This document shows positions 32,166-57,624 of a stretch of DNA of 64,000 nucleotides, one piece after another. The DNA lies in NCBI GenBank assembly GCA_049294435.1, contig JBAQCU010000020.1, positions 13,110 through 77,109 of the forward strand. The letters run 5' to 3'. This DNA is from Minisyncoccia bacterium (GTDB lineage: Bacteria > Patescibacteriota > Minisyncoccia > Phycocordibacterales > UBA1550). The notes under the pieces are model-generated. The model saw nothing but the letters and a program-made list of their open reading frames with translations, searched no databases and was not told the DNA's origin. The translations under genes and the position numbers were made by a program. Every line of letters begins with the position of its first letter. Within the stretch, counting starts at the first letter, position 1.

Positions 32166-32453
32166 GTTAGTTTTTCATAGTGAGAGAAGCGAGCTTAGTA
32201 AAACTACACCTGGTTAAATGCGATTTTGCAAATCGCGATTTCAAATTCTCTGTTAAACAGCCTGAGAATTTTTTATTATAGTTATGTGATTTTTTCATAA
32301 TAATGTTAATTGTGTTTTTAATTTGAAATCATTTAACTGGGTAAGGAAATTATATAACTTGATACAACATATTCTGCGTTCGCTCGGAAATGCAAACTCC
32401 GTGTTTGTATTTCGCTCGCTCTCTCGCTCTCTTGAATATAGTCGCTTCACTCC
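32166..32453 (-). promoter_or_regulatory. Family 1 structured leader/repeat, copy A (core 32211-32339), filling the ftsW-murG spacer
   Basis: Shares GGTTAAATGCGATTTTGCAAATCGCGATTTCAAATTCTCTGTT at one end and AATTTGAAATCATTTAACTGGG at the other with copies at 63087-63294 and 63655-63872. Strand is given as the sense of the downstream gene. Confidence 0.6.
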
Positions 32454-33551
32454 TTAATTTCTCTTAGAAATATTTAGGAGAATTCCTACCTCAAGGAAAG
32501 CAAATAGTATCGCGGAACCGCCGTGGCTAACAAACACAAGTGGTACGCCAGTAAGCGGTATTAGCCCGAGCATAGCAGCGATATTCGCAAATGACTGCGA
32601 TACTATCAGTATAACAATTCCTACAGCCAAAAGCGACTCAAAAATATTTGGGGTACGTCTCGCAATTTGTATGCCACGAACACCGAACAAAAGAAACAAA
32701 ATTATGATAATCAACCCGCCAATAAACCCAAATTCTTCTCCTACCACCGCAAAAATAGAGTCGCCTGTTGGTTCAGGGAGAGAACCGAATTTTTGTAGAC
32801 TTTGCCCGAAACCACGGCCTGTAATTCCACCTGAACCGATTGCGAGGAGAGATTTTTGAATCTGATAACTCGACCCCTGCGGGTCGTGCGAAGGGTCAAG
32901 GTATGTGAGAATACGCTCGCCAACATATGGACGAGCAAGAGCTAGAGCGCCGACCGCAAGAACACTAATACCTATAATAAGCAAAAAATGACGAATCTTC
33001 ATTCCTGCAGCAAGAAGCATTGCAATCACAGCGGCAAAAAGAACGGCCAATGTGCCGGTGTCTGGCTCTGCAAGCAACACTATAGCAGGGAGAAGCAATA
33101 TTCCGCCAGTGACAGTCAAGGCTGTTTTTAAAGTTTGGATGCGCTCCCTGAGAATTGGCAAAAGTGCGGCGAAATAGATAACAGTACCAAGTTTGAGAAG
33201 CTCGGACGGTTGAAATGTAATGAACCTCAAATCAATCCACCTATGCGCTCCACCGTGTTCCAATCCGACACCAGGCACAAAAACAAAAAGTGTAACGATT
33301 ACGGAACCAATAAAAATATAAAGTGCATTTGTTTGTAGTAATTTTAAATTGACCTTAAACGCAAAAAAAACGGCAATAATAATTCCAAGAAGAAGCCCTA
33401 AAATAACTTGATCAAACAAAAGATCCTTCAAAGAAAATCCCTTTCGCGCAAAAAGCCCAAACGAGGCAGAAGTGAAAACAAAAAGCCCTACTAGTGCAAG
33501 AAGAGCGGTAATTCCAAGAAATATTTTATCTATTGATTGGATTTTTTTCAT
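32454..33551 (-). CDS. ftsW: SEDS-family peptidoglycan glycosyltransferase FtsW/RodA
   Basis: About 10 TM helices and conserved SEDS loops (GSGGITGRGFGQS). Confidence 0.85.
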   Translation of the reverse strand: MKKIQSIDKIFLGITALLALVGLFVFTSASFGLFARKGFSLKDLLFDQVILGLLLGIIIAVFFAFKVNLKLLQTNALYIFIGSVIVTLFVFVPGVGLEHGGAHRWIDLRFITFQPSELLKLGTVIYFAALLPILRERIQTLKTALTVTGGILLLPAIVLLAEPDTGTLAVLFAAVIAMLLAAGMKIRHFLLIIGISVLAVGALALARPYVGERILTYLDPSHDPQGSSYQIQKSLLAIGSGGITGRGFGQSLQKFGSLPEPTGDSIFAVVGEEFGFIGGLIIIILFLLFGVRGIQIARRTPNIFESLLAVGIVILIVSQSFANIAAMLGLIPLTGVPLVFVSHGGSAILFAFLEVGILLNISKRN

Positions 33552-33563
33552 AACATATTTATT

Positions 33564-34619
33564 TCATCCGACGAGCGCGATTATCGTACCAAGAAGCGCG
33601 AGTACCACCGAAATAACCCAGTATCTCATCACCACCTTGTATGGTGGCCAACCGAGCGCCTGAAAATGGTTGTGTAAGGGTGCTACTAAAAATACTTTTT
33701 TACCATTTCGATATTTTTTTGAAAGAATTTGAATAAGTGACGATGCGCTTGTGGCGATAAGTAGGAGTGCGATGATGGGGAGCACCAGTACTGCCTTTGT
33801 AAGAAAAGCAACGACCGTGAGAGCAGTAGTGAGCGCCATTGTTCCTGTTTCTGAATTAAAAAAACGCGCGGGTGGAATATTAAACCACAGAAATGCTAGG
33901 AGCCCTCCGACCACTACACTGGAAAAAACAGCAAGATCTATTTGCCCCTGCGCAAATGCTATAACTGCGTAAGCGGTAAAAATTGATGCAAATACTCCGC
34001 CCGAAAGCCCATCTATACCGTCTATTATTCCACCGGAATAAATACCGATCATAAAAACAATGAAGAGCGGAATAAACCATAATCCTAGATGCATATCGCC
34101 TACAAACGGCACATGAACAAAATCTATCCCAAGCTTTGCGTAAAACCACCATGCACCAGCGCTTGCAAGGAAAAATATAAATGCGAGTCGCGCACGCAGA
34201 GCGAGGCCTCCGCCAGCATATGTGCCTGTTTCGCGACACACTAGGTAATCATCAATAAGTCCGAATAGTCCTCCTGCAACGAGAGCAAAAAGAGGGAGCC
34301 ATGTTTGCTCACGAGAAAGAAACGAGAGTTTTGAAAAAATACTGTCTGGGAAGACTGAAGCAAAAATAAAAAATAAAATAATCGTTATAGAAACAGATCC
34401 CCAAACTACAACCCCACCCATACGAGGCGTTTTTCTGTCTTCATCATTGTGAAGCTTACCTGAAATAGTTGCTTCTTTCCCGTCCATTGTTAAGCGTACG
34501 CTGGTTTTCTTCCACATCCTATGGCGATAGAGAAACGAGGTCAAAAAAGGAGTTATAGCTATACCAACAAAGAATGCTGTGGCGGTAGCAAGAAAAATTT
34601 TTACAACATCAATTGGCAT
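33564..34619 (-). CDS. mraY: Phospho-N-acetylmuramoyl-pentapeptide transferase MraY
   Basis: GLIDDYL, GIDGLSGG and NHFQALGW motifs. Confidence 0.9.
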   Translation of the reverse strand: MPIDVVKIFLATATAFFVGIAITPFLTSFLYRHRMWKKTSVRLTMDGKEATISGKLHNDEDRKTPRMGGVVVWGSVSITIILFFIFASVFPDSIFSKLSFLSREQTWLPLFALVAGGLFGLIDDYLVCRETGTYAGGGLALRARLAFIFFLASAGAWWFYAKLGIDFVHVPFVGDMHLGLWFIPLFIVFMIGIYSGGIIDGIDGLSGGVFASIFTAYAVIAFAQGQIDLAVFSSVVVGGLLAFLWFNIPPARFFNSETGTMALTTALTVVAFLTKAVLVLPIIALLLIATSASSLIQILSKKYRNGKKVFLVAPLHNHFQALGWPPYKVVMRYWVISVVLALLGTIIALVG

Positions 34620-34661
34620 AGTATTTATCTATTGTACAAAAATTATACAGAAGCACCAAAC

Positions 34662-35699
34662 TCATCTTTTTTGTGAAATTACAGAAACTCTAATTGCAGA
34701 AACAATCTTCCGCATATCGTCAAAACGCCCCTTATAGCTAGAGCCGAGTACTACGGCCACGACAGGGTCGCCAATTCCTCTGTCAAAAATAATTGCAAGA
34801 TTTCCCCCAGATAGATCTGTAAAACCAGTCTTTGATGCCACGAGTCCGGGGATACTCCCAACTATTTCATTCGTATTTGATAAAATATGCGCGATTTCAT
34901 CCTGCGAATAAATACGTGCGTCCTTGCGAGCGGTTATTTCTATGGTTTCTGGATATCTTTTCCAAAGTTCAGCAAATAACTCCGCAACATTGCGAGCAGA
35001 TCCGTACCCTCCTCCCTGCTCAAGTATGCTCACCTGCGCGAGCTGACTACTTTTTGGCAAAGGGACATCTAGGCCAGACTCATTAAAAAATCGCATCTGT
35101 TCTAGCCCGAGTGCGACAGCCTTTTCATTCATCATCTGAACAAAGCTCGCGCGTGCCAGATTCAAGTCGCCAACTTTCTCTGACATATCATTTGCACCTA
35201 CAAAACCCGCCACCGCATGCGCCGCGTCGTTTGAGGAAACAAGCAACATTGCGTTCAATATATCGCCGAGTCGCCACCTTTCACCAGGGCGAAGCCCTGA
35301 GTCCCCCTCTGCAGAAAGGTCGTCTTTTGTAAGGGTGAGTACTGCGCTCTCGGAGAAATGCTCGCGAGCCACAAACGCAGTCATCAACTTGGTCAATGAC
35401 GCAAGTGGAAGTTTTTCGTTTTCACTTTTTGCAAAAAGCACCACTCCTGTTTTTAATTCAATTACATAGACAGCACGCGCCACAAGCGAAATATCTTCAA
35501 ACGGATTCACAATTTTTGCTGTGCTAATTTCCTCAGTTGCACCACCAGTATTGTTTACACCTGTTTCTGTCTGCGTTGGAAGAGCAAATGAAAGTAGCCC
35601 CTGCATTGCAACTGCGAGGCCAGCTCCGCCAATGAGAACAATCGCAAGCGAATGGAGTCTCTTTGCGGTAATGTGTCCTTTATTCTTCCTCGTGTCCAT
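34662..35699 (-). CDS. D-alanyl-D-alanine carboxypeptidase (S11, PBP5/6-like)
   Basis: SLTK (SxxK), SSND (SxN) and KTG motifs; N-terminal TM/signal segment. Confidence 0.8.
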   Translation of the reverse strand: MDTRKNKGHITAKRLHSLAIVLIGGAGLAVAMQGLLSFALPTQTETGVNNTGGATEEISTAKIVNPFEDISLVARAVYVIELKTGVVLFAKSENEKLPLASLTKLMTAFVAREHFSESAVLTLTKDDLSAEGDSGLRPGERWRLGDILNAMLLVSSNDAAHAVAGFVGANDMSEKVGDLNLARASFVQMMNEKAVALGLEQMRFFNESGLDVPLPKSSQLAQVSILEQGGGYGSARNVAELFAELWKRYPETIEITARKDARIYSQDEIAHILSNTNEIVGSIPGLVASKTGFTDLSGGNLAIIFDRGIGDPVVAVVLGSSYKGRFDDMRKIVSAIRVSVISQKR

Positions 35700-36225
35700 T
35701 TTCAGTATCTGATTTTTTAAACTCCTCGACAGATTTCTGCGTCTCTTCGTATCCTGGCAAATCAGAAACTTTGCTTACTCCCATATATGAAAGAAGTTCA
35801 AATGTTGGTTGATATGCGACGCTTCGTCCACCTTGGTCAACTTTTTCAATAAGTCCGCGCACAAGCAGACTTCGTAAAATATAATTTGAATTCACACCCC
35901 GAATGTAGTTTATTTCGCTTCGTGTTATAGGTCCTCTATAAAGCACTGTTGCGAGAGTTTCAAGCCCTGCCTTGCCAAGATCTTTACCGAGCTCTTCTTT
36001 GAGTAGACTCTCTATTGTTGACCCCATTTCTGGTGAAGAGGCGAGCATATACTCATCGCCATTTTGCATCAAAACGATTCCACGACCAGAGAGTGACTGC
36101 TCAAGCTCTGTGAGTCCAGCACGTACATCTTCCTCCGATATGTTTAGTGTTTTTGCCAAAAAACCTGTTGTTACAGGCTCCCCCTTGAAAAACAGTAATG
36201 CTTCGATTTTGCGAGAAAGTTCCAT
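35680..36225 (-). CDS. scpB: Segregation and condensation protein B
   Basis: Tandem wHTH (ALLFFKGEPV.., RGPITRSEINYIRGV..). Confidence 0.85.
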   Translation of the reverse strand: MELSRKIEALLFFKGEPVTTGFLAKTLNISEEDVRAGLTELEQSLSGRGIVLMQNGDEYMLASSPEMGSTIESLLKEELGKDLGKAGLETLATVLYRGPITRSEINYIRGVNSNYILRSLLVRGLIEKVDQGGRSVAYQPTFELLSYMGVSKVSDLPGYEETQKSVEEFKKSDTENGHEEE

Positions 36226-36246
36226 ATGTTCTTTACTATATCACGA

Positions 36247-36276
36247 ATTATACATTCTCCAGATACCTATTGACAA
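36247..36276 (-). promoter_or_regulatory. Sigma70-like promoter TTGTCA-N18-TATAAT for scpB. It overlaps a plus-strand TTGACA-N16-TATACT at 36270-36297.
   Basis: Hexamers read from the sequence on both strands. Confidence 0.4.
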
Positions 36277-36322
36277 AAATAGATAATCGTCTATACTGTA
36301 TACATTATGGCTTCGGCCTCCG

Positions 36323-36352
36323 AGATGCCCGTCACCGCAAGGTGACGGGCAT
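36323..36352. terminator. GC-rich perfect 13 bp stem hairpin (GATGCCCGTCACC-gcaa-GGTGACGGGCATC) followed on the plus strand by GATGTTTT
   Basis: Seen in sequence directly after the stop of ORF 36360-36650. Confidence 0.5.
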
Positions 36353-36359
36353 CGATGTT

Positions 36360-36650
36360 TTAAAGAGAGGATTTCCATACCGAGACAAGTTTGTCGAATA
36401 ACTCCTGATTCAAAATATCAACCTTTCGGAAAAGTCTTTTCGTGCTAATAACTCTTGTTTGAGTAAGTTTAGCCCATACAACTTTGTTTTCAGTTTCTAT
36501 CTTATGATGAAATTCATCATTCTTTTCCTTGAGCGAACACCGCCAAATTTCACGAGGGTGCACGAAAAACACACGCCCTGTTTCATTAAGCTGTTTTTTA
36601 AGGATATTCCACTGGTCAAAACTTTCTTTCATAAAATTATTTCGCTCCAT
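36360..36650 (-). CDS. Hypothetical protein (96 aa) inserted between scpA and scpB
   Basis: ORF overlapping the scpA 3' end by 14 nt. No recognised domain. Confidence 0.4.
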   Translation of the reverse strand: MERNNFMKESFDQWNILKKQLNETGRVFFVHPREIWRCSLKEKNDEFHHKIETENKVVWAKLTQTRVISTKRLFRKVDILNQELFDKLVSVWKSSL

Positions 36651-37374
36651 AATTTGGTGTTTCTAAAGTATTTGTCTCAATTTCAATATCATCACTGTGT
36701 GAACCCTGAGTTACAGCAATCATTCCTTGCTTCACTAGCTCAAGCATAGCGAGGAAACTAACGATGATATTCACCTTTTCCTCCTTACCCACTCCGGCAA
36801 ACTCCTTAAAACTCATTTTTAAACTCCCTGTAATGCGTGTAGTTAGCCTGTCCATCATTTCCTCAAGCGAGATTACCTTTTTTACAACAACTTTTGGTAA
36901 AGTAATCTTTTTTGGAAAATGCAGTATAACATCTCGCATCGCAGAAAAAATGCTTTGCGTGGAAATTTCCTCGCTAGGAGTAAATACCGCTTCCCTCTCG
37001 CGTGGTTGCCCTTTTGGAAAAGAAATATTCTCGCCAAACATTTGCTTCACATTCACAGATAGCTCTCGAATTTTCTGATATTCCTTGAGGCGTCTTTCAA
37101 GCTCATCAATGTCCTGTGTTTCCTCATCAGTGAGTGAGAGCGTTGGCAGAAGTGATTTAGATTTGATAAGGATGAGAGTAGATGCAACAATGAGAAAATT
37201 TGAGACAAAATCCACCGGCATCTTTTCAAATTGCTTTAGGTGCTGGATATAGTCATCCGCAACCACGGCAAGCGAAATCTCATTAATGAAAAGTTTGCGC
37301 TTCTCAACAAGGTCCAACAGAAGCTCCAGTGGCCCCTCAAACACATCGGTTTTAATTTGGTAATCTGAGGGCAT
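36637..37374 (-). CDS. scpA: Segregation and condensation protein A
   Basis: MPSDYQIKTDVFEGPLELLLDLV is a canonical ScpA N-terminus. A start at 37374 avoids overlap with the upstream membrane ORF. Confidence 0.8.
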   Translation of the reverse strand: MPSDYQIKTDVFEGPLELLLDLVEKRKLFINEISLAVVADDYIQHLKQFEKMPVDFVSNFLIVASTLILIKSKSLLPTLSLTDEETQDIDELERRLKEYQKIRELSVNVKQMFGENISFPKGQPREREAVFTPSEEISTQSIFSAMRDVILHFPKKITLPKVVVKKVISLEEMMDRLTTRITGSLKMSFKEFAGVGKEEKVNIIVSFLAMLELVKQGMIAVTQGSHSDDIEIETNTLETPNYGAK

Positions 37375-37378
37375 AAAC

Positions 37379-37789
37379 TTATCTCCTTGTCTTAATATAC
37401 GCTCGCACAATTTTAACCAACGAAGTAATGATGAAGATAATATAAAGTAGCCAGAGGACAGCAAATTCAAATATTCCTGAACTGATACCCCAACCACCTC
37501 CGCCACCTGCATTTTCAAGCCAAAGTGTTACTACGATGATAACTGGAATAAACCACTTTGCGAAATTCCACCAGGCGTGGAAGACTTCGTCTTTCATGCG
37601 GTAGGTAATGAGGGATAGGAGAAAAAGTGGAGTGGAAACAATAGCCAATGATGCAACTATCCCGTAGGAATCACTGCAAATAAACAAATTTCCACTAGAA
37701 CAGTGCCAAATTTGATTAATAACAGCAGGAAGAAACAAAATAATACTTCCAATTACTCCTACAAATAAAACATTTTTTTTTGTCGTCAT
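37379..37789 (-). CDS. Hypothetical membrane protein (136 aa, 4 TM, Gly-rich loop)
   Basis: ORF with hydrophobic segments. Confidence 0.45.
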   Translation of the reverse strand: MTTKKNVLFVGVIGSIILFLPAVINQIWHCSSGNLFICSDSYGIVASLAIVSTPLFLLSLITYRMKDEVFHAWWNFAKWFIPVIIVVTLWLENAGGGGGWGISSGIFEFAVLWLLYIIFIITSLVKIVRAYIKTRR

Positions 37790-37806
37790 AAGTTTATATA
37801 AATAAA

Positions 37807-39090
37807 TTAATAATCTACTCTCATACTCCCTTTATCGCTCACAAGTTTCAAAATACGGAGTCCTAAAAATGTCTCCTTGTTTTCCTTTTCATCTTCATCA
37901 CCGCTATTCACCTTCCTTTCAATTTTAGTAGTATTCTTCTTCGCATCATAATGCGCTTCAACCTTTAAATTCCCAACTGTCACTTTCTGTTCAAGTTCCT
38001 TGATATTTCCCATTTTGTCAGTGGACCACTCATATTGTAGCGTAATTTTAGGAATTGCGCTTATGGAGATACCATTGTAATACAACTCCTGTAGCTGTAC
38101 TTTTATTTCCTTCGCTTCTTGTTTAGATTTAGAAAATACAATGCCCAAAGTGTTACCCGTAAGGTCTGTAATGATTGACGAGGTAGCAGTATTAAAGACT
38201 GTTGCTTCTCCGCCATTGTCAATGCCCTCAATCAACAATTGTTGAGTAGTAGTGCTAAAAGAGATGCGTGCTTCTGGAGACGTTGTGTCGAAGGCGACAT
38301 CATTGCCGACATTTGGCATGAGAGTGAAATCGATCGTGCCATCATTGTCATAGTCAACGAATAGAGGTGTTGCGGTTTGAAGTATGCCGTCGGGAAAGGA
38401 GATCGTCGCAGTTGTTGAAGTTGCGGATGGGACACCAGAAAATGTTGTAGAAGCAATTATGTTGTTCATACCATCAATCTCCTCCATGTCCAAGGTAAAA
38501 GAGCCAGAGGCGTAGCCTACGAGGTTTAATGTGATGGAAGTTCCTTTAGGGATTTTGAGTACTTGAACTTCGCCGTAACGCTTGAAACTACCGTCTGGAA
38601 TAGTAGAGATTGCGGAGCTAACTGTATTACCAAGGTTATCGGTGACAGAGAGGTTGAGTGGCGAGTGAAGAATGAAGCTAAGGCGGTCAGGAGAATTTGA
38701 TGAAGGAGGGGAAGTAGGTATAAACTCCAACGTAGTTGTTGATGTAATATTAGTGAGAATATTTTGAATAAGGGTACGAAGTGATGGAACCTCAAGAATG
38801 TCGGCATGTTTACGGGGAGCATTCCCAGTAAGCCACCATTTATTGTACGTATCCAAATCCACCCAGTACTTCTTCGTCGTTGAAGCAGTACTCAAGAGCG
38901 CGCTCGCTGTCACCACTGTCCCGTCACCATCCACCACTTCTTTTGGGTTATAAATAACAGTGGGAGTAGTGGTGTACACGCAATATGTTTTGGTAAAAGG
39001 AAATGCTGGTTGTGTTTCCTTACAGACAGTTTTCTTCCCCTCTTTATACTCAATATTGTCGCGAGCGTATCCTCTCCCCAGCCGGCAATC
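37807..39090 (-). CDS. Downstream part of the giant surface protein (lipase C-terminal region with a DGDGTV motif, then Thr/Ser-rich beta region). Reading frame shifted relative to the 5' part.
   Basis: The frame is open upstream of the annotated GTG back to a TGA at 39091-39093 and reads ..DNIEYKEGKKTVCKETQPAFPFTKTYCVYTTTPTVIYNPKEVVDGDGTVV. This is protein-like, whereas the tail of the upstream frame is not. Confidence 0.55.
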   Translation of the reverse strand, partial: DCRLGRGYARDNIEYKEGKKTVCKETQPAFPFTKTYCVYTTTPTVIYNPKEVVDGDGTVVTASALLSTASTTKKYWVDLDTYNKWWLTGNAPRKHADILEVPSLRTLIQNILTNITSTTTLEFIPTSPPSSNSPDRLSFILHSPLNLSVTDNLGNTVSSAISTIPDGSFKRYGEVQVLKIPKGTSITLNLVGYASGSFTLDMEEIDGMNNIIASTTFSGVPSATSTTATISFPDGILQTATPLFVDYDNDGTIDFTLMPNVGNDVAFDTTSPEARISFSTTTQQLLIEGIDNGGEATVFNTATSSIITDLTGNTLGIVFSKSKQEAKEIKVQLQELYYNGISISAIPKITLQYEWSTDKMGNIKELEQKVTVGNLKVEAHYDAKKNTTKIERKVNSGDEDEKENKETFLGLRILKLVSDKGSMRVDY

Positions 39091-41762
39091 TCATAGAGCG
39101 ACACTCCTTGAGGTGGCGTCCATATATCAAGCACGCCGTGCACCACTTCCGCTTGAGAAAAAAGATTTGCGTTTCCTACGCTTGGATAAGCCAAATCATC
39201 TGCTGACGATGATGCGGTTCGCCATGTATCGGTAATGAAATTTCGCAATCCAGACTCAGAATTAATAACTGTTCCATAGCGGGCACGAAAATCTGCGAGA
39301 AAATCTGAGTTATCAAATGTTACGACAGAAGTGGTAACATTTGTAAAATAGCTGACTGAGGAAACAAGATTGTAAGCAGATGACATATTTTCGGCAAGAC
39401 TGCGGGCAGTTTTTAAAGAAAGTGCGAGAGGAAAAATATCCGCAGGCAATCCTTGATCATACCCGTGTAAAATCGCACCTATCGCCTGTGGTGTTCCTAC
39501 TTGTGGCACTGCAATTAAGACAACCTTGTCAATAAGTTTAGTAGTTTCTGTGTCACCAAGTTTTTGCATAAGCGCTTTTGCCACAAGTCCACCGTTAGAA
39601 TGCGCAACAATAGTGACCTTGCCAGTTTTTGAGGTTTTCGCGAGACGACGAAGCTCTTGAATAATGTATGGTGATGATGTAGCAGAGAGGTATGAAATAT
39701 TCTCGCCTGTCTTAATACCATTGTTTAAAATATCGTCTAGAGAAAGGCGCCAATCGTATGGAGTGGTCGTTGCGATGATACCATAATCGGTCTCCCATGT
39801 TTTCATTTCTTGGAGAAATGATTTGTAAACATTCCCCTTAATCGGCAAATAGGCATTGTCAATCACATCCTTAGTGTATACATCATTTCGGACAGAGGCT
39901 CCGCCTGAGTTTAAAAATAAGTTCTCAGCATCAGCGTTTGATGATGGTTCCCAAAGTTTGTTCTCTACGCCATTGCCGTCTGGCATATACAACCGACTTG
40001 CCTCAAGCCCCGGAAGAAAAAGCACGTTGGAGTAACAATTTGTCTGACAAGAAGTTTCTAATTGCTTTACAACCACCGTTCCAGCTCCTGCGCACGTCGC
40101 AGACCAACCATCAAAGCTGACACATCCTCCTTTTGCAAAAACTCCACCAGAAAACGAGGAAGTGGCATAATAAAGAGCAATTCTGCCACCACCACCCATA
40201 CCAAATACAATGTTTGGCCAATACGCAGGACCGCCGTTGGCTCGATAGCTACCAGCACCAGACATCTTGTCGGCAGTAACATAAATACTGCCACCACTTG
40301 ACGTGTTGCTTCCATCTGCAGAAATCGTGCCGTCATTTAAAAGAGTGTCAGTAACAACAAGTCTAATAGCTCCACCTCCGTGTGGAAAATATCCATTTCC
40401 TCCGCTACCAAAATCGATTGGTGCTGTCGAGGACCCATATGTTGATGTTGCTGAATTCCACAGCCCGATACCGCCATAGCTTGCGCCAGCGGTCGCTGTC
40501 GCAGGGGCCCCTTGCCCCAACCCCGCGCCATATCCCTTTGCATTTGCGGTGACAGAACCGCCAAGAGATATATTTAGGTTTGGTATAGTTAGGGACAAAA
40601 TATGTTCTTTTGCCACGGTGAGTGTCCCACCATTTTTAATGTTTAAAGTGTCAGATACTAATGTTTCATTGCCGGACAAAGTCAATGTGCTTCCTTGACC
40701 TATATCTATTAGGGGAATATTTAATACCGAAGAACCTAATATAGTGAAATAAGAATTCTGTTCTTCCATAAGGTAATGAGCATTGATACTCGCACCATCC
40801 TTCACTGTTATTCCAGAAAGATTTCTTACAAAAATATTATCTGCAGTTACAGATACGTCTTTCTCAATCTCTACGCCTGTGCTGTTTACAATAGAAACGT
40901 TACGAAAACTAAAAGGTGTGTCATTTGCTTGAAATCTAAAAGATCCTTTTGGATACAAATCATTATTCGTAGTATCGATAAAAACTACTGTTCCATGGCC
41001 TCCAGCCGGATTACATCCATAAAAACAATAAATTCCAGCGTTTGCTTTTGCGCTACCGGTAAAAGATGACTGTTGATAATATACCGCTATTCTTCCACCA
41101 CCCCCTGAATAATAATATGGCCAGGATGTATCTGCTCCGTTTGCGTTAAATGTACCTGCTCCTGCTAATTTATTAACAGTTACATATATGCTTCCGCCAC
41201 TCGTACGATACAATTGTCCATTTGAAGAAATATTGCCATTATTTAGAAGCGTGTCAGCCACAACAAGTCTTATGGCTCCACCGCCTCTATAACCGCTTGT
41301 CCCACTCCCCAAATCAATTGGCATCATGGCAGACCCGTATGTTGAAGTGGCTGTGTTCGCACCACCAGCACCACCGTAACTTGCGCCAGCATTAGTGCCA
41401 GAAGGAGGCAACCCTGGTCCAGACGCATATCCTTTACCATCTGCGGAAATACGCGAACCTAGTGTAACCGTTATATTAGTAGCATTTATTTTTACTCCCT
41501 TGAATAAGTCCATGGAAAGCTGGTTTCCTTCTAACGTAAGTGTTGCATTATTGGCTATGGTTAAATTATTGAAATTGTATTCACCCGCGAGTAGAGATTT
41601 GCTTGCAATAACAACGACTTCAGCTTCAGTGCTATCTGCTATGGCGTTGCTATTCAAATCTGAATCTAAAACAGCAGAGGCATAAATAGTTTGAGTGCCC
41701 ACAAAGAACGTACAGAAAAAGACAGTTGCTACTGCTAATATAATTTTACTTTTACTCATCAT
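38910..41762 (-). CDS. Giant secreted protein, 5' part: signal peptide, two ~270 aa Gly-rich repeats (beta-helix-like), and an alpha/beta-hydrolase lipase domain (LCAT/PGAP1-like, AHSNGG). Probably the same gene as 37807-39090, interrupted by a frameshift.
   Basis: MMSKSKIILAVATVFF.. signal peptide. Internal repeats GASYGG(A/I)G..ATSTYGS..PID(L/F)GSG..GGGAIRLVV.DTLLN. Nucleophile motif TIVAHSNGG. The last ~45 codons are low-complexity (KRGRKLSVRKHNQHFLLP..). Confidence 0.7.
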   Translation of the reverse strand: MMSKSKIILAVATVFFCTFFVGTQTIYASAVLDSDLNSNAIADSTEAEVVVIASKSLLAGEYNFNNLTIANNATLTLEGNQLSMDLFKGVKINATNITVTLGSRISADGKGYASGPGLPPSGTNAGASYGGAGGANTATSTYGSAMMPIDLGSGTSGYRGGGAIRLVVADTLLNNGNISSNGQLYRTSGGSIYVTVNKLAGAGTFNANGADTSWPYYYSGGGGRIAVYYQQSSFTGSAKANAGIYCFYGCNPAGGHGTVVFIDTTNNDLYPKGSFRFQANDTPFSFRNVSIVNSTGVEIEKDVSVTADNIFVRNLSGITVKDGASINAHYLMEEQNSYFTILGSSVLNIPLIDIGQGSTLTLSGNETLVSDTLNIKNGGTLTVAKEHILSLTIPNLNISLGGSVTANAKGYGAGLGQGAPATATAGASYGGIGLWNSATSTYGSSTAPIDFGSGGNGYFPHGGGAIRLVVTDTLLNDGTISADGSNTSSGGSIYVTADKMSGAGSYRANGGPAYWPNIVFGMGGGGRIALYYATSSFSGGVFAKGGCVSFDGWSATCAGAGTVVVKQLETSCQTNCYSNVLFLPGLEASRLYMPDGNGVENKLWEPSSNADAENLFLNSGGASVRNDVYTKDVIDNAYLPIKGNVYKSFLQEMKTWETDYGIIATTTPYDWRLSLDDILNNGIKTGENISYLSATSSPYIIQELRRLAKTSKTGKVTIVAHSNGGLVAKALMQKLGDTETTKLIDKVVLIAVPQVGTPQAIGAILHGYDQGLPADIFPLALSLKTARSLAENMSSAYNLVSSVSYFTNVTTSVVTFDNSDFLADFRARYGTVINSESGLRNFITDTWRTASSSADDLAYPSVGNANLFSQAEVVHGVLDIWTPPQGVSLYEIAGWGEDTLATILSIKRGRKLSVRKHNQHFLLPKHIACTPLLPLLFITQKKWWMVTGQW

Positions 41763-41768
41763 AAATAA

Positions 41769-43166
41769 CTATTTCATCCTTGGAATCGTAATCCCGAGCT
41801 CCTGAAGTTGCTCCGCGCTCACTTCCGACGGAGTTTCCATCATAAGGTCACGACCTTCGCCGGTCTTTGGGAAGGCAATCACTTCGCGAATGTTTGGCTC
41901 ACCAGTGAGAATAGCGAGAAAGCGATCAAGCCCCCATGCAATACCGCCGTGCGGTGGCGCGCCGTACGAGAAAGCATCAATCATGTGACCAAAGTTAGTG
42001 CGAATGTTCTCTTCGGTGTGCCCCATAATCTCAAGCACTTTAATAAGCGCGTCTGGACGATGATTACGAATACTTCCACCACCAATTTCAAAACCATTGA
42101 GTGCGATGTCGTACTGCGCAGCCAAAATCTCACCAATCTTTTCTTTATTCATAAGCCATTTGTGATGCTCCGACATTGGCGCAGAAAAAGGGTTATGCGT
42201 AAATGTCCATCCGCCTTTTTTGTCTTTCTCAAAAAATGGAAATTCAATAACCCAACAGAACGCCAAGAGATTCGGGTCGTTTTTATCTTCACGCATATCA
42301 GGGCGGTCATTTCCGTACTTTTCCATCGCTTCTTTGTACGTAATGCGTGGGAAAGGAACTGTCTGAATTTTCTTTTCTGGCGCGAGTGTTTGCACAAGCT
42401 CGATCAAAAGTTTTTCATTGAGCTCCATAATATCCTTTTGATTTACAAACGAAAGCTCCATATCGAGCTGAGTAAACTCGGGCTGACGGTCACCGCGTGT
42501 GTCCTCATCACGCATACAGCGAGCAATTTGAAAATAACGTTCCATCCCTGCAACCATCAAGAGTTGCTTGTACTGTTGAGGAGATTGCGGGAGCGCGTAA
42601 AATTTACCCTGTTCAATACGAGACGGCACGATATAGTCGCGCGCGCCTTCCGGAGTAGACTTTGTAAGAATGGGTGTTTCTATCTCTATAAAATTATGTT
42701 TTGAAAGAAAGTTACGTATATGAAGCGCAATATCATGGCGAAGACGCATGTTTCTCTGAAGGCGAGGGCGACGAAGGTCTAGATAGCGATACTTTAGACG
42801 TGTTTCTTCTCCAATCTCGTGACCATCTGAGGTAACATCCATAGGAGGAGTTTGGGCTTCGTTTAATACTAGAATACTCAAAACTTCAAGCTCAATGTCT
42901 CCATTAAGTACGTCTGCTTTGATATTGCGCTCTGGGCGCTTGTTTACTTGAGCAGAAACACTCACGACCCACTCTGGGCGAAGGCGTTGTGCTACCTCGA
43001 GTGCCAGAGCGTGATTTGGAAGTACAACAGCTTGAACTTTGCCACTCATCTCGCGTAAATCAAGAAAAACCATCTTCCCTTGGTCACGGCGAATATCCAC
43101 CCACCCTTGCACGGTAACTTCTTTGCCGATATGTTTTTTTAAATCTTTAATGTAGGTACGTTCCAT
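41769..43166 (-). CDS. aspS: Aspartate--tRNA ligase, short archaeal/non-discriminating type (no GAD insertion); AsnRS not excluded
   Basis: N-terminal OB fold; class IIb motifs (FRDED-like ARCMRDEDTRGDRQPEFTQLD; GGIAWGLDRF..AFPKT); 465 aa. Confidence 0.75.
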   Translation of the reverse strand: MERTYIKDLKKHIGKEVTVQGWVDIRRDQGKMVFLDLREMSGKVQAVVLPNHALALEVAQRLRPEWVVSVSAQVNKRPERNIKADVLNGDIELEVLSILVLNEAQTPPMDVTSDGHEIGEETRLKYRYLDLRRPRLQRNMRLRHDIALHIRNFLSKHNFIEIETPILTKSTPEGARDYIVPSRIEQGKFYALPQSPQQYKQLLMVAGMERYFQIARCMRDEDTRGDRQPEFTQLDMELSFVNQKDIMELNEKLLIELVQTLAPEKKIQTVPFPRITYKEAMEKYGNDRPDMREDKNDPNLLAFCWVIEFPFFEKDKKGGWTFTHNPFSAPMSEHHKWLMNKEKIGEILAAQYDIALNGFEIGGGSIRNHRPDALIKVLEIMGHTEENIRTNFGHMIDAFSYGAPPHGGIAWGLDRFLAILTGEPNIREVIAFPKTGEGRDLMMETPSEVSAEQLQELGITIPRMK

Positions 43167-43170
43167 GATT

Positions 43171-43410
43171 TTAGTGGTAAATCTCTTTCTTAACTTTCTC
43201 TAGTGCCTCTTCGTATGTTTCCTCTTCTGCTAATTGGTCGAGTATCGATGGGTCACGCTTAACTAACTTATCAAAATCATCCGCATGTTCTCCAATCCAC
43301 GAAATAAGTGACTGGTCTAATTCATGCGCAAGTTTTATTTGCACCATGTTACGTGAAAGCTGTTGCTTCTCACTAAAGCCTCCGCCCATAGGTTGTTCCA
43401 TTTGTCCCAT
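43171..43410 (-). CDS. Hypothetical acidic small protein (79 aa)
   Basis: ORF tightly packed between trpS and aspS. Confidence 0.4.
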   Translation of the reverse strand: MGQMEQPMGGGFSEKQQLSRNMVQIKLAHELDQSLISWIGEHADDFDKLVKRDPSILDQLAEEETYEEALEKVKKEIYH

Positions 43411-43411
43411 A

Positions 43412-44389
43412 TTATTTCAAAATTAATCCCACCTTCTCACGCACGTCTTTCATTGTCTTCTGCGCATGAGCGCGCGCAACGATGCCACCCTCTTTCAAAA
43501 TTTTAAGAACTGCTTCGGGGTCGCGCGCTATCTCCTCACGACGCGCGCGCATTGGCGAGATAAACGAAATAATTTTTTCTACGAGTAAATCTTTTGACTC
43601 CTTGTAGCCAATTCCTCCTTTGATATATCGCTCACGTATTTCTTTCAGATTATCTCCGGGAAAGAGTTCGTGTAGTGCAAATACCTTGCATTCGCTTGGA
43701 TCTTTTGGTTCCTCCACACCTTTTGAGTCTGTGGGAATACTCATCACCGCTTTTTTGATTTCATCATCACTCGCAAAAAGCCCAATGATATTGCCATAAC
43801 TCTTGCTCATCTTACGACCATCTGTACCAGGTACCGTTTTTACTTCTTCAAGAATCATTGCTTCAGGAATTTTGAATGTCTCTCCAAAAGTGCGGTTAAA
43901 CTTTTGCGCGGTATCACGGGCTATTTCAATGTGTTGCTTCTGATCAAGCCCAACAGGCACCACGTCTGCGTTATACATCAAGATGTCAGCAGCCATAAGA
44001 ATAGGATAATCAAAAAGACCCACGTTCACCTCTTTGTTTTTCGCTTCAGCATCCTTGAAAGCATGCGCGCGAGAAAGATACGGCATTGTAGTGATGGTAT
44101 TAAAAATCCAAGCGAGCTCGGTCACCTCTGGCACATCGGACTGCAAAAAGAGTGTAGTCTTTTTAGTGTCCACACCAATAGCTAGATAGTCCATCGCAAT
44201 CTCCAGCGTGAGCTTTTGCAAAAGCGCCCCGTCAGACACACTCGTGAGAGCGTGGTAGTTGGCGATAAAAATATACTGGCAATACTCGTCCTGCCTATCC
44301 ACAAACTGACGCATAGCACCAAAATAATTACCGATATGTACGGTTCCCGTTGGTTTTACTCCAGAAAGTAGTGTTTTCTGCATTTCCAT
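43412..44389 (-). CDS. trpS: Tryptophan--tRNA ligase
   Basis: SGVKPTGTVHIGNYFGA (HIGH motif) and KMSKS. Confidence 0.9.
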   Translation of the reverse strand: MEMQKTLLSGVKPTGTVHIGNYFGAMRQFVDRQDEYCQYIFIANYHALTSVSDGALLQKLTLEIAMDYLAIGVDTKKTTLFLQSDVPEVTELAWIFNTITTMPYLSRAHAFKDAEAKNKEVNVGLFDYPILMAADILMYNADVVPVGLDQKQHIEIARDTAQKFNRTFGETFKIPEAMILEEVKTVPGTDGRKMSKSYGNIIGLFASDDEIKKAVMSIPTDSKGVEEPKDPSECKVFALHELFPGDNLKEIRERYIKGGIGYKESKDLLVEKIISFISPMRARREEIARDPEAVLKILKEGGIVARAHAQKTMKDVREKVGLILK

Positions 44390-44432
44390 ATACTACCAGA
44401 AAAAACGTTGATTTTAAAGCCGACCGCACCCG

Positions 44433-46097
44433 TTACCCTTTCGCCTCAAGCTCAACATAAAAGCTTGAGCCATGACCTTCCCCTTTAGACTCAGCCCAAA
44501 TTCGTCCTTCGTGTTTCTTAATCACTTCTTTCGCCACATAAAGACCTAGGCCAGTTCCTTCTGTATATACTTTGTTTACACCCTCACCACGACTAAACTT
44601 TTTAAAAATTTTTTCAAGCGTCATTGAGTTCATCCCAATACCTGTGTCTGATAAACTAAAAATAATTTTTTTTCTGTCTGAACTTTTGGATAAGAGTAAG
44701 GATATTTCTCCATTTGGTGTGTATTTTATAGAATTATCTATGAGATTTGAAATAACTTGTCGCAATTTTCCACTATCTCCCACAGTAATAAACTGCTCAT
44801 TACCCGAAACGCCATCATCTATCATCACGTTAAAGACCAAACGTGCATGGAGAGCATTCTGCTCCATATCACTCGCGATGTCTGTGACTAGTTTTTTCAT
44901 ATCCACGTCGACAAATTTATAATTCATATCACCGCTTTCTATGCGTGAAATATCCATAAAATCAGAAATCACAACAACGAGATGTCCGCTTGAAACAGAT
45001 ATCTTTTCAAGCGCATCCATCACGGGATGAGAAAGCGGGCCAAAAGAACCCTCGATGAGCATTGATGCATAACCTTTAATAACGGTAAGCGGGTCACGCA
45101 AGTGGTGCGCCGCAATGGAGAGAAATTCTGATTTTTTCTTATCAAGGAGCTTCAAACGCTTTGATATTGCATCAAGATTATGAGAAAGACGTATAATCCT
45201 CTCTTCAGACTCTATCTCGCGCTTCACGCTTCTTGCTAAAAATGAACTGGACAAAATGATTAATAACGTGATTACTGTTCTAATAAACAAATCGTAGATA
45301 GAATTCGCGAAAAAGAGCTCGGTTATAAGAACAAGCGCAATAATAGAGATGAGCAACTCAATAGTAATAATTTTAATGTTAAAAGAATTGTACTTTATGA
45401 GAATAAATGAAGTTGCAAAAATAAGCAGGCTTACAGAAAAGTGTCCAATCCAAAACATACCATGCTGTCCAACAGTAAAAATCGGAGGCATGAATGACAT
45501 TACCATCGTTATTGCGCAGACAAAACCAACCACTGTAAGCATCTCGAAAATTGCAGTTTTAAGAATCCCGACACTTTCTTGATATTTTTTAACAAGCAAG
45601 AAAATAGCTGCTACAAGATACGTAAAAATATAAAAAATGTATATCAGGAATCCTTTACCTAAAACCATGCCATCAAGAGCTCCAGTGGGGGCCTCCTGAT
45701 AACTGACAATGAATGATGGGTACCAGTACAAAATACCGACTATTGCAAAATAGGGTACGAAAAAAGCAACAAATTTTTGAAACGAAATCTCACTATTTTC
45801 AATCGAAAATACATGCAAAAATATAAATAAAAATGGAGGCACGATGGCGGCGACTGCGTAGAGTGCCACGATTCCCATATAAACGCCAGATATACTGAAC
45901 GAGCCATCTAAAATAGCATAAACAAAACTACTCAAAAGATTTATAATCGCTAAAAAAAAGAAAATTCTGCTGTTGCGTTTTGCAAGATCCTGCCAAAATA
46001 TAACCCACGAGAGTACCACGATAAAAAGATTCCATATCACGAGTACGCACATCTCAATGGAAAGGTTACTGATAATATCAAGTAATGCTACTGGCAT
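44433..46097 (-). CDS. Sensor histidine kinase with an N-terminal multi-TM sensor, HisKA and HATPase_c domains
   Basis: H-box SIAAHHLRDPLTV; G-boxes DTGIGM, GTGLGL. Confidence 0.85.
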   Translation of the reverse strand: MPVALLDIISNLSIEMCVLVIWNLFIVVLSWVIFWQDLAKRNSRIFFFLAIINLLSSFVYAILDGSFSISGVYMGIVALYAVAAIVPPFLFIFLHVFSIENSEISFQKFVAFFVPYFAIVGILYWYPSFIVSYQEAPTGALDGMVLGKGFLIYIFYIFTYLVAAIFLLVKKYQESVGILKTAIFEMLTVVGFVCAITMVMSFMPPIFTVGQHGMFWIGHFSVSLLIFATSFILIKYNSFNIKIITIELLISIIALVLITELFFANSIYDLFIRTVITLLIILSSSFLARSVKREIESEERIIRLSHNLDAISKRLKLLDKKKSEFLSIAAHHLRDPLTVIKGYASMLIEGSFGPLSHPVMDALEKISVSSGHLVVVISDFMDISRIESGDMNYKFVDVDMKKLVTDIASDMEQNALHARLVFNVMIDDGVSGNEQFITVGDSGKLRQVISNLIDNSIKYTPNGEISLLLSKSSDRKKIIFSLSDTGIGMNSMTLEKIFKKFSRGEGVNKVYTEGTGLGLYVAKEVIKKHEGRIWAESKGEGHGSSFYVELEAKG

Positions 46098-46254
46098 AAT
46101 TCAATTATACCATACCAATCGCAAAAATTACCCACGATTTTGTTGAAAACTACTGCAGAGTTCTTTTTTCTTTCAACTCCAAATATACTGACTCCGAATT
46201 TGTGTCTTCGCACCTTTAGTATAAATTTTGATAAATTCACACTGCTTGCTAATA

Positions 46255-46432
46255 CCATCCCCAATTAACCTATGTACAATAATCCAAAAATTTTGGCTGC
46301 GACTTCGAATCAGCTGATTCGTGGCTCGGCCATAAAAGAAAATCCTTTGAAATATCCCGATATTCCTCATATTTTTCTCTTCGTCTCGCTCAAAATTTTG
46401 GAATTCTTTGCACAAGAGTTAATTGGGGATGG
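46255..46432. repeat. 178 bp element bounded by a perfect 15 bp inverted repeat (CCATCCCCAATTAAC / GTTAATTGGGGATGG) with TA dinucleotides outside both ends; contains the 16 bp palindrome CGAATCAGCTGATTCG (46306-46321) and two CAAAATTTTGG boxes
   Basis: Inverted repeats and palindromes read directly from the sequence in the intergenic region between the two histidine kinases. Confidence 0.45.
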
Positions 46433-56952: not shown

Positions 56953-57624
56953 TCAATCGGAAATGTCCGCTTGTTCCTTAAATATTATTTTCTTTCTGTA
57001 TGCCTTACAATAATTAATTGTAGAACAAATTTCCTTGAAAAGTAATTTTGATTCGTTTTCCTCATAATCATACTCCTCCTCAGACTTACCTTGGAATTTA
57101 TAGTGCAAAAAACTGCTCCTTTTTTCAGAAACCTTCTTAATTAAATTAAAATGTTTTCTGTTAAATTTAGGTAACTTCATAACATCAATTAACCAAGTAA
57201 ACTTACCCTCAAAAGAAACATATTTTAATAATTCCTTAAGCGTACTATTAGGAACATCATTTCTAATAGTCCATATTTGAATAATTTCGTTAATGAAGTG
57301 CTCAAAATACGTTGCCAGAAAAACGTATGCAAGGTTAAAATCATCTTCCTTAACAGATTGTTCAAAACTACTCAAAAGGGTATCTTGATGAATAATTACA
57401 AAATGAGAATGTTTACTTTTTGCACGTTGCCTAACCCATTTTCTGATTTTCTCATCTACCAATTTTTTATTAGAAAGATCAGCGACAACAAGAACTCCAC
57501 AAATTATTGCTGACTCAACAAGTTGAGGAAAAATTTCTTTCAACAATTGGTGACCTTCACTATCTACTGCCATTCCCTCTTTATTAGTTTGCTCCTTTAT
57601 CATAGTGCTATAAAATTTCATCAA
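56953..57624 (-). CDS. Hypothetical protein (223 aa), possibly HEPN-like (R-x4-H: EKRSSFLHY); last gene of the restriction-modification operon
   Basis: Overlaps the 3' end of the RM gene by 17 nt. The Rx4-6H motif alone is weak evidence. Confidence 0.4.
   Translation of the reverse strand: MMKFYSTMIKEQTNKEGMAVDSEGHQLLKEIFPQLVESAIICGVLVVADLSNKKLVDEKIRKWVRQRAKSKHSHFVIIHQDTLLSSFEQSVKEDDFNLAYVFLATYFEHFINEIIQIWTIRNDVPNSTLKELLKYVSFEGKFTWLIDVMKLPKFNRKHFNLIKKVSEKRSSFLHYKFQGKSEEEYDYEENESKLLFKEICSTINYCKAYRKKIIFKEQADISD

Follow-up and report, generated by a model that had tools for sequence, protein, structure and literature searches.

Two open reading frames (ORFs) on the minus strand of a 64,000-nucleotide stretch of Minisyncoccia DNA (the window) overlap in different frames, and NCBI annotates them as two hypothetical proteins, WAV98_01280 and WAV98_01275 (CDS MFZ2303406.1 and MFZ2303405.1). 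Are they two genes, one gene joined by recoding, the product of a sequence error, or one gene that has recently been broken? ORF A (38910-41762) encodes 950 aa. The ORF B frame, –1 relative to ORF A, stops at 37807 and remains open upstream as far as the TGA at 39091-39093, with GTG 38979 as its first listed start; for ~180 nt neither frame contains a stop. The peptides EIAGWGEDTLA, RDNIEYKEGKK, AHSNGG and DGDGTV, cited in a previous sequence-only reading of this DNA, were all found in the window translations. ORF A and the ORF B frame are pieces of one gene, with the following features.

37807..41762, minus strand: whole disrupted gene; repaired, a 1317-aa LCAT-family lipase, predicted to be secreted (ORFs, homologue alignment)
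41676..41762, minus strand: putative N-terminal signal-peptide-like segment, residues 1-29 (MMSKSKIILAVATVFFCTFFVGTQTIYASA), recognised by reading the sequence
40983..41564, minus strand: Gly-rich all-beta module, copy 1, residues 67-260 (BLASTP of copy against copy, AF2)
40071..40646, minus strand: Gly-rich all-beta module, copy 2, residues 373-564 (BLASTP of copy against copy, AF2)
39054..40046, minus strand: predicted LCAT/LPLA2-type alpha/beta hydrolase domain before the shift, residues 573-903 (Pfam LCAT, Foldseek LPLA2)
39597-39599, minus strand: codon of the putative nucleophile Ser722, in AHSNGG (Ser invariant in the alignment)
39052..39056, minus strand: site of a 2-nt insertion (protein alignment of 40 homologues, DNA alignment with L002, L006 and L007)
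38910..39053, minus strand: out-of-frame tail of ORF A, 47 junk residues (LSIKRGRK...MVTGQW) and the stop codon at 38910-38912
38725..39051, minus strand: lipase domain after the shift, frame –1, repaired residues 904-1012 (conserved D and H)
38923-38925, minus strand: putative catalytic Asp946, in DGDGTV (invariant in the family alignment)
38806-38808, minus strand: putative catalytic His985, in KHADIL (invariant in the family alignment)
37807..38724, minus strand: conserved C-terminal region, repaired residues 1013-1317, common to the whole family
37379..37789, minus strand: 136-aa multi-pass membrane protein, downstream of the lipase gene

That the two frames form one gene split by a frameshift, as the sequence-only reading had proposed, is borne out by the homologues, which run through the junction as single ORFs. 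The best 120 of 2066 homologue matches are all single ORFs covering 77-100% of the query. At the junction itself a single frame was found in 40 of 40 aligned homologues, in 75 of 80 genome loci and in all 37 metagenome loci that span it; one of ~76 genome loci and none of the 37 metagenome loci is broken. One homologue, P0008, comes from another metagenome and is intact at 1299 aa, with the two-module architecture of the repaired window protein, and its locus has the same aspS-lipase-small-membrane-protein arrangement as the window. The gene 3′ of the P0001, P0002 and P0003 homologues encodes a protein with 47–71% identity to the 136-aa protein of the window, while at P0008 the next gene downstream (133 aa) resembles it in position and length. 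A small membrane protein, for which no Pfam match was found in the window, follows the lipase gene here and in every related locus examined, making a conserved two-gene module. A search of the rest of the window found no paralogue of the lipase gene, and a promoter and terminator scan gave a signal below shuffle expectation.

No intact allele of the same species came to light: the junction with a variable gap gave 0 matches in a scan of genome and metagenome contigs. Metagenome contigs scanned at the protein level yielded at most 71% identity among loci covering the junction; an 88% identity fragment from the metagenome scan (L127) stops short of it. In a cluster look-up the proteins of the MAG itself came back, accompanied only by short junk members with no relation to them.

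At the lesion the window has GCGACAATATTGAG where its three closest homologues have GCGAC(T/C)ATTGAG, that is, ACAATATTGAG against AC(T/C)ATTGAG at the insertion site itself, or, viewed by codons, ACA ATA TT GAG against ACN ATT GAG. The DNA of these three relatives (L002, L006 and L007) is 2 nt shorter exactly at 39052-39056, so the change is a 2-nt insertion by both protein and DNA alignments and not the single-nucleotide indel first supposed, although the interval predicted for it, 39040-39070, was right. The surplus pair is ambiguous within ATATT, and the simplest reading would be a tandem AT/TA duplication. Repaired, the junction becomes ...TLATI/EYKEG, matching homologues that continue uninterrupted as ...EIAGWGEDTLA-TIEYKEGKK...; the ‘RDN’ quoted from the downstream frame comes from reading through out of frame. 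The longest homopolymer runs near the shift are A4 or G4, and the insertion lies outside any of them.

What the insertion interrupts is a predicted lipase. The repaired protein carries an LCAT/LPLA2-type Ser-Asp-His lipase domain as judged from its sequence, in agreement with the earlier description of it as an LCAT-like hydrolase: Pfam PF02450 (LCAT) matches at 42.2 bits against a cut-off of 21 (E 8e-11), the match being limited to profile positions 38-203 of 392, and in a Foldseek search of the PDB the top five structures are LPLA2 and LCAT (E 3e-8 to 4e-6, TM 0.43-0.53, for a model with pLDDT 66). The nucleophile elbow AHS722NGG, of G/A-x-S-x-G type, has H, S, N, G and G invariant in 32 sequences, and Asp946 (GDGTV) and His985, which here lie in the shifted frame, are likewise invariant in the 32 aligned family members. 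The DGDGTV region shows a weak HMM alignment to LPLA2 residues 326-343. Searched against the PDB, the full-length family profile gave no matches and a lipase-only profile gave weak matches only, around the nucleophile elbow; no NCBIfam family was matched. The shift falls between Ser722 and the pair Asp946 and His985, dividing the putative catalytic triad. The separation of the AHSNGG serine from the DGDGTV aspartate had been foreseen; the histidine of KHADIL is cut off from the serine as well. The C-terminal region has no Pfam match and lies within homologue matches of 100% query coverage.

The N-terminal part is of a different nature. Its first segment has a helix at residues 5-27 in the AF2 model, at low pLDDT, while the N-terminal 575 aa as a whole are modelled as all-beta and repetitive with pLDDT 91.6. 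Instead of the ~270-aa tandem repeats described before, there are two Gly-rich modules of ~190 aa each, ~305 aa apart, with 49% identity (BLASTP of copy 1 against copy 2, E 1e-43). Tandem Repeats Finder detected no DNA-level repeat in the gene, so the modules appear to be old duplicates. Residues 1-575 have no Pfam match, including to PF13229 and PF05048 (Beta_helix, NosD). Foldseek with this region reached at best E 0.04 and a TM of at most 0.3, the better-ranked weak matches being nearly all beta-solenoids, and a beta-helix is a plausible reading of the model. The attachment function that the sequence-only reading had suggested for this half may be no more than a possibility.

We consider it probable that the insertion truly exists in the dominant genotype of the sampled population and inactivated the gene very recently, leaving a nascent pseudogene in a large, multi-copy family with fast turnover; the most likely class of event would be an ordinary recent pseudogene or variant allele that calls for no new mechanism. 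The simplest event, a duplication of AT in tandem in ACAATTGAG following codon Ile903, would have shifted the frame, and translation from the start would then yield a 950-aa product with Ser722 and 47 junk residues and without Asp946, His985 and the C-terminal region, which should leave the lipase without catalytic activity. A signal peptide is missing from the downstream piece, and on reading the sequence we saw no Shine-Dalgarno-like sequence ahead of GTG 38979; we infer that the truncated product would be inactive and the downstream part unexpressed. Past the shift there is no sign of decay. This segment has 0 stops in 413 codons and no further shifts, and keeps 79 of 82 columns that are ≥90% conserved (25 of 26 in the lipase part, 54 of 56 in the C-terminal part). 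Of 197 conserved columns 7 deviate, mid-range for intact homologues, and the similarity of the post-shift segment to the family equals that among intact members. Either the break happened very recently, therefore, or it is not real. Over 14,062 bp the window is 100% identical, insertion included, to a Logan assembly of SRR28062858, the contig of which may go back to the reads used for the MAG. Among the five other suspicious overlapping ORF pairs of the 64-kb window there is no split gene, all of them being distinct full-length genes, and the assembly is therefore not indel-ridden. The Logan identity and the position of the insertion outside any homopolymer favour a real mutation.

The main competitor, to which we give a clearly smaller though appreciable chance, is an artefact of sequencing, assembly or consensus calling, the organism having an intact 1317-aa gene or the surplus bases being present in a minority of cells. 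The perfect preservation of the 413 downstream codons, with family-typical conservation, and the lack of decay would be equally expected in that case, MAG consensus sequences sometimes carry indels, and a Logan contig possibly built from the MAG's own reads would allow for a systematic error or a mix of alleles. A Peptidase_S11 gene is moreover split in L003 and L004 (identical P0002 homologue) and whole in L002 and L005, so assemblies of near-identical strains do differ in such ways. However, over 14 kb the two different assemblies do not disagree at a single base, a two-base insertion into non-repetitive sequence is unlike the typical error in homopolymer length, and no other gene among the suspicious pairs of the window is broken. 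It is hardly credible that the two frames are separate genes with independent starts, even though NCBI annotates two CDS and Logan's gene caller also made two: neither piece occurs alone in any homologue, the triad is split between them, the last 47 residues of ORF A have no homology, and the homologue alignments refute such a division. An independent start of ORF B at GTG 38979 was rejected for want of a Shine-Dalgarno-like sequence, as was the GTG chosen by the Logan caller (368 aa), which sits inside DGDGTV/V and would exclude the Asp. The annotation should merge WAV98_01280 and WAV98_01275 and flag them as one frameshifted gene.

Programmed recoding, by –1 ribosomal frameshifting or transcriptional slippage, would make a truncated surface protein together with some full-length lipase, as had been suggested for this locus. 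In its favour, the gene would need a –1 shift, and programmed shifts most often go in that direction; neither frame is closed across the overlap; and L008, a distant member of the family, has a break of its own in this loop at an A9 run, at which slippage could bring translation back into frame. We nevertheless regard this as very unlikely. When 38910-39090 was read codon by codon, neither an X XXY YYZ heptamer nor a homopolymer was seen (the site reads ACA ATA TTG), and the run of at least ~7-9 identical bases expected for slippage, which L008 has as A9, is absent at the shift site. RNA structure across 38900-39100 does not exceed chance (MFE –52.6, shuffle mean –48.2, z –1.16; an equally good fold is reached by 26 of 200 shuffles). 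The shift is not conserved, being absent from the aligned homologues, the three closest relatives and P0008, and a shift away from the insertion site would replace a loop that holds two nearly invariant cysteines. No other part of the domain varies as much in length as the loop in question, which lies between GWGE and DGDGTV. Besides the window, L008 is broken in it by a change from A8 to A9 and L068 by a break from frame 3 to frame 2. Three independent breaks within one ~40-residue loop might mark a recurrent break point, a contingency-like switch by which Patescibacteria turn surface LCAT-like lipases off in populations and perhaps, at A-tracts as in L008, back on; were this so, there would be on/off variation of an enzyme that perhaps harvests host membrane lipids, and the window would hold a captured ‘off’ allele. 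We judge this improbable. Ascertainment partly explains the pattern, a length-limited search being able to return only truncated LCAT-bearing proteins (chance co-location ~0.01, a rough estimate), (AT)2 is far too short for a hypermutable tract, L068 is degenerate at the motifs (IAGTGEE, GDGTKTG) as an old pseudogene would be, and the broken loci are as few as counted above, one in the genomes and none in the metagenomes.

A recent real mutation thus remains our preferred reading, and under it the frameshift shows gene turnover in the lipase family and hints at an indel-prone loop. This family of LCAT-like lipases is very large (>2000 members), uncharacterised and widespread in Patescibacteria; its proteins have shuffled N-terminal surface modules and are predicted to be secreted. 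The intact enzyme would be expected to act on lipids, possibly those of a host; for Vampirococcus a secreted phospholipase has been proposed for host-lipid use, and the intact family is a reasonable candidate for host-lipid acquisition. Nothing specific was found in the literature on LCAT-like lipases or pseudogenes in Patescibacteria.

With LCAT and LPLA2 (PLA2G15; PF02450) the window protein has in common the G/A-H-S-x-G elbow, the GDGTV Asp and the downstream His, and LPLA2 4x97 (E 3e-8) and LCAT 5bv7 are the closest solved folds to the predicted lipase model. Unlike these eukaryotic enzymes it is bacterial and fused to N-terminal modules that look beta-solenoid-like and to a C-terminal region of ~300 aa. 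The type VI secretion phospholipase effector Tle4 (4r1d), a bacterial lipase that targets other cells' membranes, is the best profile match among solved structures (E 0.0024 near the nucleophile elbow) and also a Foldseek match (E 7e-6), but the likeness is very distant, the domain architecture is different and the window shows no T6SS context. The predicted all-beta repetitive N-terminus resembles in that respect the beta-helix adhesins and passenger domains (tapirin, EtpA, Ag43, pertactin) and phage tailspikes, though without a significant fold match to them. In reduced genomes of the Buchnera/Blochmannia type, frameshifts in poly(A) tracts are rescued by polymerase slippage. The window likewise has a frameshifted but otherwise intact gene in a reduced-genome bacterium, yet here the damage is an inserted dinucleotide away from any homopolymer, which would make slippage rescue unavailable; L008 does have such an A9 tract. 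The nearest relatives belong to the patescibacterial family that NCBI names ‘lipase/acyltransferase domain-containing protein’ (P0022, P0050 and P0008 among others), with 59–71% identity over the lipase and C-terminal regions at 100% coverage and a small membrane protein downstream as in the window. N-terminal domains are shuffled across this family, the window's type occurring in 4 of 120, and the relatives named here are all single ORFs, without the 2-nt insertion of the window copy.

Every peptide quoted in the sequence-only reading, which had described two overlapping frames within the disrupted lipase gene at 37807-41762, was found in the window. The frames, the adjacent small gene and the parts of the repaired protein (1317 aa) are as follows.

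Features of the disrupted lipase gene, its product and the adjacent gene
38910-41762, minus strand: frame A, a 950-aa ORF
End at 37807, minus strand: frame B, –1 relative to frame A; first listed start GTG 38979, open upstream as far as a TGA at 39091-39093
Junction sequence: ACAATATTGAG with the insertion, ACAATTGAG without it
37379-37789, minus strand: small multi-pass membrane protein (136 aa in the window, ~135-180 aa across loci); in other loci at L006 4943-5356, L007 4223-4627, and L002 9139-9675 and 9970-10431
Residues 67-260 and 373-564: two copies of a Gly-rich module (49% identical, E 1e-43)
Residues 573-1012: lipase domain (Pfam LCAT PF02450, 42 bits against a cut-off of 21)
Residues 1013-1317: C-terminal region, conserved, common to the whole family, no Pfam match

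At NCBI the two ORFs are separate entries of a Minisyncoccia bacterium MAG (MFZ2303406.1 and MFZ2303405.1; WAV98_01280 and WAV98_01275; 125,310-bp contig), both titled 'hypothetical protein'. A 746-aa query joining both frames, junction included, matched 2066 proteins at E ≤ 1e-5. The best 120 of these are single proteins with 42–70% identity and query coverage of mostly 99–100% (66–97% in the others); their source names include Paceibacterota, Kaiserbacteria, Minisyncoccota, Yonathbacteria and Moranbacteria. Two genuine genes are therefore an unsupported reading, the homologues being single proteins across the junction. The downstream piece lacks a signal peptide, and no Shine-Dalgarno-like sequence was seen on reading before the GTG of frame B.

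Alignment to intact homologues, as the sequence-only reading had proposed, located the shift after Ile903. Nearly all of 40 aligned homologues carry ...EIAGWGEDTLA-TIEYKEGKK... or a near variant; against them, frame A of the window is right up to ...TLATI (Ile903), and frame B is right from EYKEGKK on. At the DNA level, the window reads GCGACAATATTGAGTA, compared with GCGAC(T/C)ATTGAGTA in the three closest relatives. Since these relatives lack two bases present in the window, the lesion consists of two surplus bases within 39052-39056. Its predicted position was thus correct, but the supposed single-nucleotide indel is a 2-nt insertion, located outside any homopolymer; the simplest account is a tandem AT/TA duplication in ACAATTGAG. 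The proposed separation of the AHSNGG serine from the DGDGTV aspartate holds: Ser722 (AHSNGG) lies on one side of the shift, Asp946 (GDGTV) and His985 (KHADIL) on the other, all three being invariant in a 32-sequence alignment.

The part of the gene beyond the shift contains no stop in 413 codons. Of the columns conserved to at least 90% in homologues, it retains 25 of 26 in the lipase domain and 54 of 56 in the C-terminal region. Its similarity to the family equals that between intact members; counted across all 745 aligned residues, the window departs from 7 of 197 conserved columns, a mid-range figure for intact homologues. This lack of decay means that the break is either very recent or not real. 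A Logan assembly of SRR28062858 contains a 14,062-bp contig 100% identical to window 32218-46279, insertion included, in which the gene caller likewise reports 950-aa and 368-aa genes; thus, two assemblers agree, although both assemblies may share the same reads. Nor is the window assembly generally indel-ridden: the five other overlapping same-strand ORF pairs are all distinct genes with end-to-end domain matches. Because two assemblies reproduce the lesion, and because it inserts a dinucleotide into non-repetitive sequence, we consider a real, recent mutation probable and a sequencing or assembly artefact, which the absence of decay would also fit, rather unlikely. Another frameshift in this lineage, strain-level or assembly-level, affects the Peptidase_S11 gene beside the identical homologue P0002: it is whole (328 aa) in L002 4950-5936 and L005 470-1456, and split into 178 and 139/140 aa in L003 4981-5936 and L004 2901-3849.

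Programmed recoding, by which one gene would yield two products as the sequence-only reading had offered as an option, is unsupported. Codon-by-codon reading of 38910-39090 revealed neither an X XXY YYZ heptamer nor a homopolymer above 4 bases, RNA structure at 38900-39100 was no better than in shuffles (z –1.16), and promoter-like and terminator-like sites were below shuffle expectation. The shift was found neither in the 40-homologue protein alignment nor in the three-relative DNA alignment, and the lipase domain is in one frame in 75 of 80 loci of GTDB representative genomes and in all 37 metagenome loci covering the junction. A contingency-like on/off switch would draw on two further family members that are broken in this loop too, a stretch of ~40 residues linking GWGE to GDGTV. 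One is L008 (Logan ERR3281034 contig 377025, 4660-4720), the locus of a distant member with the same two-module architecture, where P0127 (915 aa) stops after ...GWGEETLAGVDYKKKDNTDRR (also given as ...GVDYKKKDNTDRR) and an ORF starting MVVDGDGTVV begins 20 nt later. An A9 run marks the break; homopolymer error and a slippage-prone site are candidates, and with A8 or A11 a single ORF would result. The other, L068 (Candidatus Moraniibacteriota MAG, JACPGV010000001.1, 4440-4800), passes from frame 3 to 2 between IAGTGEETL... and ...GDGTKTG; with IAGTGEE in place of AGWGE and GDGTKTG in place of GDGTVV, it looks like an older pseudogene. A rough estimate of about 0.01 for chance co-location is suggestive, not compelling, and ascertainment adds to the coincidence: the homologue search returned no protein longer than about 1.75 query lengths, which left truncated proteins as the only LCAT-bearing matches of the N-terminal query. 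Since length varies more in this loop than in any other part of the lipase domain in the 40-homologue alignment, repeated breaks are economically explained by a proneness of the loop to indels, and a switch is very improbable.

The lipase gene starts 6 nt downstream of aspS and is followed, after a 17-nt gap, by a gene for a 136-aa membrane protein and then by scpA, scpB, a Peptidase_S11 gene, mraY and ftsW. The intact P0008 (1299 aa) carries two Gly-rich modules in the same order of aspS, lipase and a small (133-aa) protein, and is therefore the positional counterpart that shows the undamaged form; its 133-aa neighbour (L009 6014-6415) is matched by position. By lipase sequence the nearest homologues are P0001-P0003. 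Their genes occupy other positions within this neighbourhood, those of P0001 and P0003 being flanked by the S11 peptidase gene and mraY, and each has the same small membrane protein gene directly behind it. The motif TYRMKDEVFHAWWNFARWF...ENAGGGG is conserved in this protein, which has no Pfam family and directly follows the LCAT-like lipase in the window as in L002, L006 and L007, regardless of neighbourhood. The pair behaves as a two-gene module, and the small protein possibly partners the lipase in function. Elsewhere in the window, a 1039-aa ORF (57608-60727, minus strand) has Type ISP restriction-modification domains (Type_ISP_C, E 4e-80; N6_Mtase; Eco57I; HSDR_N).

Residues 1-29 of the repaired protein resemble a signal peptide. 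Residues 1-575 have no Pfam match and were confidently modelled as a repetitive array of short beta strands (AlphaFold pLDDT 91.6, pTM 0.88). Since Foldseek matches to the PDB were weak (best E 0.04), the better-ranked ones being nearly all beta-helix adhesins, autotransporter passengers, curli or tailspikes, the modelled N-terminus can be called beta-solenoid-like, with membership of any solved family not demonstrable. The two Gly-rich modules are a rare N-terminal architecture, present in only 4 of the best 120 homologues. The module pattern (GASYGG...YGS...P.DLGSGG...GGGAI...GSGGSIY...GGGGRIA.YY) also occurs in MAG proteins assigned to Planctomycetota, Sedimentisphaerales, Bdellovibrio and Acidobacteria-type sources (e.g. 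P0141, P0169, P0209, P0218, P0242); in these proteins it is fused to other domains, and for most of them Pfam gives no annotation. The pattern appears to define a widespread surface module that is undescribed.

The two lipase peptide patterns match 415 loci in GTDB representatives. Several genomes hold two or three LCAT-like copies (L019/L069/L088 in JACROD01, L031/L035 in DDWQ01000005.1, L044/L050 in CAYHIZ01, L046/L057 in JAYTVK01), and precomputed Pfam domains and source names reveal widely varying N-termini (Beta_helix, NosD, DNRLRE, PxKF, chitobiase-C and others); the family is multi-copy and domain-shuffled. For many MAGs with this gene, typical of Patescibacteria, the record title is 'uncultured Candidatus Saccharibacteria', 'Bdellovibrionales' or 'Nitrospira sp.', which may reflect loose or wrong labels or mis-binned contigs. 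The window gene is an ordinary, frameshift-disrupted member of a large known kind, and the result is mainly an annotation correction. The sequence-only reading had the gene, split triad and position right, and the Pfam match bears out its LCAT-like family; the indel size and the two-product option did not stand. The intact product is a putative secreted or surface LCAT/LPLA2-type enzyme, and host-lipid acquisition is a reasonable candidate role of the family. The lipase-domain model, of moderate quality (pLDDT 66), finds its best PDB match in lysosomal phospholipase A2 (E 3e-8), followed by LCAT and the type VI secretion lipase Tle4.
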